Source: Escherichia coli (GTDB taxonomy: Bacteria > Pseudomonadota > Gammaproteobacteria > Enterobacterales > Enterobacteriaceae). Taken from it: a DNA stretch of 64,000 bases. The position numbers and the translations under genes were made by a program. Of the stretch, positions 60,185 to 60,701 are shown piece by piece. A model generated the notes under the pieces. It did not search any database and was not told the origin of the DNA. It was given only the letters and a program-made list of their open reading frames with translations. The stretch lies in the NCBI RefSeq assembly GCF_044324875.1, contig NZ_CP172185.1. One strand, 5' to 3'. Every line of letters starts with the position of its first letter. The first letter of the stretch is position 1.

Positions 60185-60499
60185 TTACCAGTGACGGCGA
60201 GGTTCCATCAGCTGATGAAGAATGCGCGCAATGAGAATGTCATCGACTCTTATAACGTAATAAACAGTGTGAAACCTAAATGCGATCTTCTTTACCTCTG
60301 GAATCGCATCATAGTCTTGACCAATCTCGGGCATTTGAGAGAGTGTATCCAAAAAAATGCCGAGAGAGTCGGTATAGCGATCCGCCTGCTCCTCACCAAA
60401 CTTTCCCAGCGTGTAGTCATAGATCCCTCTGAAATCTTCAACAGCTTTTCCGCTAAGCTTATACACGATGTTTTTGCTTCCTTTCTGCTGCGATATCAC
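60185..60499 (-). CDS. ParE/RelE-superfamily toxin of a type II toxin-antitoxin pair
   Basis: Small basic protein with the ParE-like N-terminal motif YKLSGKAVEDFRGIYDYTL; track ORF starts at GTG 60499 (104 aa); a GTG at 60466 (93 aa, 8-nt overlap with the antitoxin stop) may be the real start; directly downstream of a ParD-like gene. Confidence 0.75.
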   Translation of the reverse strand: MISQQKGSKNIVYKLSGKAVEDFRGIYDYTLGKFGEEQADRYTDSLGIFLDTLSQMPEIGQDYDAIPEVKKIAFRFHTVYYVIRVDDILIARILHQLMEPRRHW

Positions 60500-60701
60500 G
60501 AAGCGTCATCGAACTTTCACCGCTCTCAAGACCTTCAATAACTGCATTTCTGACAGCTTCATCCCTGGATTCTTGTTGTTCCAATAGACGAAGCGCTGAA
60601 CGCATCACTTCACTGGCCGAGCCATAACGACCAGACTGGACCATCCGGGTAATAAAACTATCTAATTGTTCGCCAACGCTTACTGAGGTAATTTTGCGCA
60701 T
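60459..60701 (-). CDS. ParD-like (ribbon-helix-helix) antitoxin
   Basis: 80-aa ORF [53 protein letters not shown]...; the [10 protein letters not shown]...ALRLLE motif is typical of ParD antitoxins; ggagat SD upstream. Confidence 0.8.
   Translation of the reverse strand: [80 protein letters not shown]

Follow-up and report, generated by a model that had tools for sequence, protein, structure and literature searches.

A probably functional chromosomal ParD/ParE-type toxin–antitoxin module between yajD and secF of Escherichia coli

What are the two small genes that separate yajD from secF in a subset of Escherichia coli chromosomes, and do they form a working toxin–antitoxin system? In order to answer this we analysed a stretch of 64 000 nucleotides (nt) from contig NZ_CP172185.1 (assembly GCF_044324875.1), referred to throughout as the window, in which an original prediction made from the sequence alone had singled out an overlapping gene pair as a ParD/ParE-like type II module. 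Our reading is that these genes, here called parD and parE, very likely constitute a chromosomal type II module of the ParE/ParD (PF03693) class that is intact and probably works. The pair is genuine, and it is also already known in kind and annotation, as both genes are annotated by RefSeq in strain 042 and in the other carrier records examined; the original prediction had thus treated it as more novel than was warranted. The genes and their flanks are as follows, with protein lengths in amino acids (aa).

60459–60701, reverse strand: parD, antitoxin of 80 aa, ATG start (RefSeq WP_001226938.1)
60185–60466, reverse strand: parE, toxin of 93 aa, GTG start (RefSeq WP_000277485.1)
60852–61823: secF, the flank of the pair on one side
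59750–60097: yajD, the flank on the other side

The region from 59700 to 61200 is 100 % identical to the chromosome of the enteroaggregative strain E. coli 042 (NC_017626.1). Both open reading frames (ORFs) lie on the reverse strand exactly where they had been predicted, with the quoted peptides reproduced to the letter, and the proposed order was borne out: the 80-aa antitoxin gene comes first, followed by the co-oriented 93-aa gene, with an overlap of 8 nt (60459–60466). The statement that this pair is missing from the K-12 locus was likewise correct, the secF–yajD spacer of MG1655 being only 128 nt long and containing neither gene. The program-made list of ORFs opens the toxin at a GTG further upstream (60499, giving 104 aa). 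We place the true parE start at the GTG at 60466 (93 aa, MYKLSG...), because the RefSeq coding sequence (CDS) agrees, because an MYKL start is common to all homologues and because the junction catcGTGtataagct is identical in a Salmonella plasmid homologue.

The product of the upstream gene, which had been proposed to be a ParD, matched the Pfam family ParD_antitoxin PF03693 (E=1.9e-22, model positions 1–64 of 81) and scored 95.7 bits against the NCBIfam model TIGR02606 (type II toxin-antitoxin system ParD family antitoxin), for which the curated cut-off is 46.2 bits. Its closest relative of solved structure is ParD2 of Vibrio cholerae (7B22/7R5A; E=2.9e-19 over residues 1–69), with further matches to Caulobacter crescentus ParD1 (3KXE_C; E=1.9e-13), Mycobacterium tuberculosis ParD1 (3.3e-10) and then PrpA of Pseudoalteromonas rubra. 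Residues 1–69 align with the solved ribbon-helix-helix antitoxins VcParD2 and CcParD1, and the N-terminal K-x-T-S ribbon residues, which contact bases in the V. cholerae system (PMC10776004), are kept; the match to the generic Pfam model RHH_1 is weak (E=0.14). RefSeq names the 80-aa protein 'type II toxin-antitoxin system ParD family antitoxin'. ParD is predicted to comprise an N-terminal ribbon-helix-helix DNA-binding part and a C-terminal toxin-binding tail.

The downstream product matched Pfam ParE_toxin PF05016 over its whole length (E=5.2e-14, residues 2–88 on model positions 1–88 of 89). The profile search that the original prediction had called for thus returned both the ParD and the ParE families, far beyond chance, and not the blank result that it had named as its refutation. 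As PF05016 spans the entire RelE/ParE superfamily, the branch to which the toxin belongs was examined separately. This breadth, together with a RefSeq name that says merely 'RelE/ParE family toxin', leaves room for a true toxin–antitoxin pair in which the toxin has a target other than gyrase, either as a RelE-like ribosome-dependent mRNA endonuclease or through a target that is not known, as with certain ParE-like toxins. The PDB, when searched by sequence (E ≤ 1), nevertheless argued against this, for it yielded four ParEs, namely PrpT (7YCS), MtParE1 (8C24), CcParE1 (3KXE) and VcParE2 (7R5A), and no RelE, YoeB, HigB or YafQ. The predicted structure pointed the same way. An AlphaFold model built with 39 homologues in the alignment reached a predicted local distance difference test (pLDDT) value of 90 and a predicted template-modelling score (pTM) of 0.79, and its elements (E-H-H-E-E-E-H) fit the ParE-type fold of two N-terminal helices on a three-stranded sheet with a C-terminal tail. 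When this model was compared with the PDB using Foldseek, the top 23 matches were all ParE-class toxins (template-modelling (TM) scores 0.67–0.88, the top five 0.84–0.88), whereas the ribonuclease-type RelE, YoeB, HigB and YafQ folds were clearly weaker (0.46–0.67, set against 0.77–0.88 for ParE toxins). Moreover, all 39 aligned toxin homologues have the C-terminal motif R-I-L-H-Q-x-M without variation, and the toxin is partnered by a ParD of PF03693, the class of antitoxins that goes with ParE toxins (PMC7848731). A non-gyrase target is therefore, in our estimation, unlikely.

With profile, matches to solved ParEs and predicted fold in agreement, the earlier assignment of the downstream gene to the ParE/RelE type is upheld, and on the same grounds we assign the pair to the large ParE/PF03693-ParD class described in PMC7848731. 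So far as computation can examine them, the features that define the ParD and ParE families are all present in the two proteins.

A palindrome had also been noted just upstream of the pair. The elements found there, and the hairpin that precedes them, are listed below.

60714–60732: perfect inverted repeat TGTATTAA-TAG-TTAATACA with 8 base pair (bp) arms, candidate ParD operator
60734–60763, reverse strand: candidate sigma-70 promoter, with -35 TTGGTT at 60758–60763, an 18-nt spacer and -10 TATACT at 60734–60739
60709–60712, reverse strand: Shine-Dalgarno sequence GGAG, read from the sequence, 7 nt ahead of the parD ATG
60793–60828, reverse strand: hairpin followed by a T-run directly past the secF stop (inverted repeat I1, 15-nt arms, 87 % complementary), candidate secF terminator

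The inverted repeat ends 12 nt before the parD ATG, and the candidate -10, a match to consensus at 5 of 6 bases, ends 1 nt ahead of it. The same arrangement recurs in distant homologues, which is our reason for proposing the promoter: a 5-kb plasmid of Salmonella carries a module with a toxin of 66 % identity, in which TTTGTATTAATAGTTAATACATG is identical and is preceded by TTGGCA-17-TACCAT, whilst a Yersinia ruckeri plasmid has the repeat GTGTTAA-TAG-TTAACAC, in which symmetric changes in the arms keep the palindrome, preceded by TTGACA-17-TATCAT. The five E. coli alleles compared show no variation in the 7-bp core of the repeat, nor in the promoter save for two spacer bases, and the nearby intergenic DNA varies. 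Conservation of a palindrome at 60–66 % identity, with its place relative to the -10 unchanged, is what might be expected of an operator for a dimeric ribbon-helix-helix protein, and supports a possible autoregulation of parDE through this site.

The segment that varies between strains was compared across complete E. coli genomes.

60164–60851: strain-variable segment of 688 bp, comprising terminator, promoter/operator, parD and parE, with junctions set against K-12 and STEC309

This segment was present in 426 of 5,426 genomes (7.9 %), always on the chromosome and in a single copy, and never on a plasmid. It lay between secF and yajD in all 12 carriers for which the annotation was read, among them the strains with the highest and the lowest identity. 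In an evenly spaced sample of the matches, most belonged to the heavily sampled O157:H7 group, at ∼98 % identity to 042; the other carriers included 042 itself, SMS-3-5 and isolates from humans, poultry, dogs and the environment, with 98.8–100 % identity. Strain 042 belongs to phylogroup D, SMS-3-5 to F and O157:H7 to E. The module diverges by 1.7–2.1 % between 042 and O157:H7, and the flanking yajD and secF genes by 2.6–2.7 %; overall, divergence is 1–2 % for the module and, on a par with this, 1.9–2.9 % for the two flanking genes. Such values fit either long residence with joint inheritance or spread by homologous recombination in the flanks, and do not fit repeated recent acquisition.

The nature of these differences is informative. 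In the comparison of 042 with O157, parD has four synonymous and no nonsynonymous changes, and parE four and two, respectively; 042 differs from each of E67, XH992 and LWY24 by six to seven synonymous changes over both genes and by no nonsynonymous ones. For parD, differences among the five intact alleles compared are solely synonymous. As the allele differences are almost all synonymous, they indicate that both parD and parE are under purifying selection.

Taken as a ParD/ParE module, the pair would be expected to work as follows. A single promoter just ahead of parD would drive a bicistronic parD–parE mRNA, and translation of parE would be coupled to that of parD via the 8-nt overlap and the weak GTG start, yielding an excess of antitoxin. 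Dimers of ParD would bind the inverted repeat beside the -10 through their N-terminal ribbon-helix-helix and repress the operon, probably aided by substoichiometric ParE; ratio-dependent autoregulation by a PF03693 ParD has been shown for VcParDE2 (PMC10776004). The C-terminal tail of ParD would wrap ParE and so neutralize it. By homology, ParE alone should be toxic: upon depletion of ParD, free ParE would poison DNA gyrase, so that DNA is broken, the SOS response is induced and cells stop growing or die. We regard gyrase as the probable target; its inhibition has been shown experimentally for VcParE2 (PMC3001019) and MtParE1 (PMC10899793). Finally, the module has probably arrived by horizontal transfer from a plasmid-type lineage and been inherited thereafter with its flanks, persisting largely as a selfish addiction element.

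A number of observations weigh against so complete a picture. The toxin is no more than 28–32 % identical to those ParEs for which gyrase has been proven as the target, and for PrpT, its closest structural match, the paper (PMC7848731) reports no target and does not contain the word gyrase; both points also favour a non-gyrase target. Furthermore, no model of the NCBIfam scan matched the toxin, and the remaining four of the five AlphaFold models of it scored low (56–70). A consensus scan called no promoter in the region, since the -35 is weak, with 3 of 6 bases matching. We found no experimental study of this pair in the searchable literature, and infer its toxicity, neutralization, DNA binding and target. 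Lastly, in strain E105 (NZ_CP071375.1, L004 1398–3228; ∼60466 in the window) an element of the insertion sequence family IS3, ∼1.3 kb in size, lies between parD and parE. Here the parD CDS is shortened to 231 nt and differs at its 3′ end, and parE is intact but parted from the operon promoter, with no apparent harm to the strain, which suggests that toxin expression can be lost or tolerated and is not always lethal.

Tolerance of the element in E105, together with a GTG start and a weak -35 that suggest low expression, might be taken to mean that the pair is a decaying or domesticated remnant, in which the toxin is attenuated or silent and the genes are carried passively or kept for the DNA-binding antitoxin; chromosomal toxin–antitoxin modules of E. 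coli do decay, ccdO157 being one example (cited in PMC7167474). The state of the genes in other carriers speaks against this. Both frames are intact in the six carriers for which CDSs were compared, the parD of E105 excepted, and among ∼100 carriers listed RefSeq annotates both genes in all but E105. The preponderance of synonymous differences in both genes and the retention of the C-terminal family motif in the toxin are equally at odds with decay, and plasmid-borne relatives have the GTG junction too, which makes it a family trait and not a sign of deterioration. Truncated or frameshifted toxin ORFs do exist in the protein database (P0008, P0024, P0032 and P0039). One of these, P0024 (77 aa), was considered as a case of toxin decay and rejected: secF and tsx are also split in its source assemblies (GCA_008122345.1 and GCA_008122335.1), so that its frameshift is most likely an assembly indel error. 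Overall, we find it improbable that the pair is a remnant.

The pair can be compared with systems already characterized. With V. cholerae ParD2/ParE2 the pair shares an antitoxin-first operon, the K-x-T-S ribbon and GRYGSASEV(I/M)RSALRLLE core of the antitoxin, the toxin fold (TM 0.84, at an identity of only 28 %) and a GTA(T/C)-type base motif in the operator. The V. cholerae operator differs, however, in having three GGTA sites, where that of E. coli has a single 8-bp inverted repeat with an ATAC-TTT-GTAT element beside it; the Vibrio module resides in the superintegron of chromosome II, and the gyrase poisoning and ratio-dependent regulation shown there are presumed for the E. coli pair. 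The ParDE1 modules of M. tuberculosis (8C24) and C. crescentus (3KXE) are likewise chromosomal two-gene modules with PF03693-type antitoxins, and their toxins are 31–32 % identical to ours with a TM of 0.85. Their hosts are distant and the identity is low, and the gyrase inhibition demonstrated for MtParE1 would extend to the E. coli toxin by homology. PrpT/PrpA of P. rubra (7YCS), another ParE/PF03693 pair, provides the best toxin match (E=8e-8, TM 0.88), and at its left edge the E. coli palindrome has TTTGTATT, which is similar to the binding motif reported for PrpA, TTTG(T/A)AAT. PrpTA differs in belonging to a conjugative plasmid, where PrpA also binds origin iterons and controls copy number (PMC7848731), whereas the module of E. 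coli lies on the chromosome and has no replicon in its vicinity.

Nearest outside E. coli are plasmid homologues from the Enterobacterales (a 5-kb Rep_1 plasmid of Salmonella, pYRKMM821_1 of Y. ruckeri, and plasmids of Klebsiella, Citrobacter and Serratia), which have the same layout of promoter and palindrome, proteins of 80 and 94 aa, the 8-nt overlap and the GTG junction, but are on plasmids and often next to replication genes. The archetype, ParD/ParE of RK2, shares the ParE fold and the logic of an addiction module, and differs in that its ParD belongs to the antitoxin family PF09386 (PMC7848731). The same fold and logic are found in PaaA2-ParE2 of E. coli O157 (5CW7; TM 0.78 to ParE2), which is part of a three-component prophage system, PaaR2-PaaA2-ParE2, with a toxin only 18–20 % identical. 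ParDE-I of IncI/IncF plasmids (PMC6614396) was considered as a relative and set aside, as it appears to belong to another family that is only distantly related (its identity to C. crescentus ParE1 is 15 %, as against 31 % for the E. coli toxin).

As to where the module came from, E. coli alleles of the toxin cluster tightly and on their own (with identities of at least 97 % inside the species), followed by a gap down to 66 %. The nearest toxins outside E. coli are 57–66 % identical; the examples examined are plasmid-borne, often beside replication genes, in Salmonella, Yersinia, Serratia, Klebsiella and Citrobacter, and some relatives in the database lie on chromosome-sized contigs of Erwinia and Xenorhabdus. 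A scan of bacteria at one genome per species, using exact peptide words of the toxin, found no close relative, and the module appears to be absent from representative genomes of the sister species. It probably entered E. coli after the species had formed, from a lineage of plasmid type.

The 688-bp segment begins right past the secF stop codon and stops 66 nt ahead of the yajD ATG, and stands in place of 62 bp in K-12-type strains (042 and O157:H7 are occupied; STEC309 and K-12 are empty). No similarity was detected between the two segments (their local score was 13, and shuffled sequences averaged 11.2 with a standard deviation of 1.8), and a search of the 62-bp segment for remnants of the module found none. 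No target-site duplication, flanking direct repeats or mobility genes were found at the 688-bp segment. The comparison thus indicates a replacement and not a clean insertion; being a replacement without repeats or mobility genes, the site agrees with the remark that chromosomal toxin–antitoxin modules sit in intergenic sites by unknown mechanisms (PMC7167474).

Maintenance under purifying selection in several lineages, alongside related modules (57–63 % identical) that are common on enterobacterial plasmids, raises the question of whether the host itself benefits, either through abortive-infection defence against phages or through anti-addiction or anti-plasmid protection against related parDE plasmids. 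Such roles have been documented for other toxin–antitoxin families (PMC7167474). The original prediction had suggested that the pair could influence persistence, stabilize the region or act as an abortive-infection-like defence. For the present pair, however, a PADLOC search found no family at E ≤ 0.01 for either protein, and a search of a phage collection gave no match; with PHROGs, only generic toxin, antitoxin or unknown-function families were obtained. No defence genes adjoin the module, its flanks being core housekeeping genes, and cross-neutralization is uncertain at 57–66 % identity. We therefore give a host-beneficial role only a slim chance, and continue to favour a largely selfish module. 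More speculative still is the idea, to which we attach very little probability, that ParD does more than neutralize its own toxin and, by analogy with PrpA, binds incoming plasmids at their operators or origins where these plasmids have 57–66 % identical parDE with the same palindrome, thus acting as an anti-addiction or anti-plasmid factor, or else that ParE affects the evolution of quinolone resistance. Were the first so, ParD would shape which plasmids O157:H7 and other carrier lineages keep; were the second, ParE activity would influence gyrase-linked quinolone resistance evolution in carrier lineages.

A gene for a 518-aa pentapeptide-repeat protein, ∼7 kb away (51866–53422, forward strand, between pgpA and yajO), was considered as a Qnr-like protector of gyrase and rejected. 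It is an orthologue of the type III secretion effector EspY3, ∼96 % identical to the O157:H7 gene, and is present in 934 of 5,426 genomes, a set that differs from that of the parDE carriers.

With regard to previous knowledge, a literature search via gene neighbours, RefSeq protein accessions and locus tags yielded one pangenome paper only, in which the O157 allele (WP_000277484.1) is listed as 'Toxin ParE4' among O157 marker genes (PMC12472240). Published work on ParE in O157 concerns the unrelated three-component paaR-paaA-parE prophage systems. The finding matters little beyond bookkeeping, in that it offers no new biology and opens no long-standing question. It does provide a clean example, in O157:H7, 042 and SMS-3-5, of a toxin–antitoxin module that is under purifying selection in a core intergenic region without mobility scars, and the module could serve as a lineage marker, as its O157 allele already does. 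Because ParE toxins act on gyrase, as quinolones do, the pair is also worth experimental interest in O157:H7.

The remaining observations concern transcription around the module and its neighbours. The hairpin at 60793–60828 probably ends secF transcription. It was not called by a strict terminator scan of the region, and we propose it from the comparison of occupied and empty sites, the 62-bp segment of K-12-type strains bearing a different terminator-like hairpin. Neither the terminator scan nor an inverted-repeat search of the region found a terminator-like element 3′ of parE, so that read-through into yajD is possible. In strain Z226-1 (L016 2600–2640; ∼60765–60800 in the window) there are ∼16 differences, all between the secF hairpin and the parD promoter. 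Elsewhere its promoter, its palindrome and the two genes are almost the same as in 042, and the patch looks like a small local replacement.

The tsx–yajD spacer (59574–59749, especially ∼59705–59738) contains a short dispersed repeat, probably an element of the repetitive extragenic palindromic (REP) type. Positions 6–39 of the query taken from 59700–61200 matched a JM109 plasmid record, and the 1.5-kb query as a whole gave 102,124 places in 5,425 genomes, with a median of 15 per genome. This spacer is 11 % divergent between 042 and O157, as compared with 0.2 % for the flanking tsx. Upstream of tsx, yajI (∼57800–58400), which encodes a DUF3251 lipoprotein, is annotated as a pseudogene without its N-terminus in the parDE carriers E67, XH992, Z226-1 and LWY24 (L014–L017), and is intact in 042 and O157:H7.

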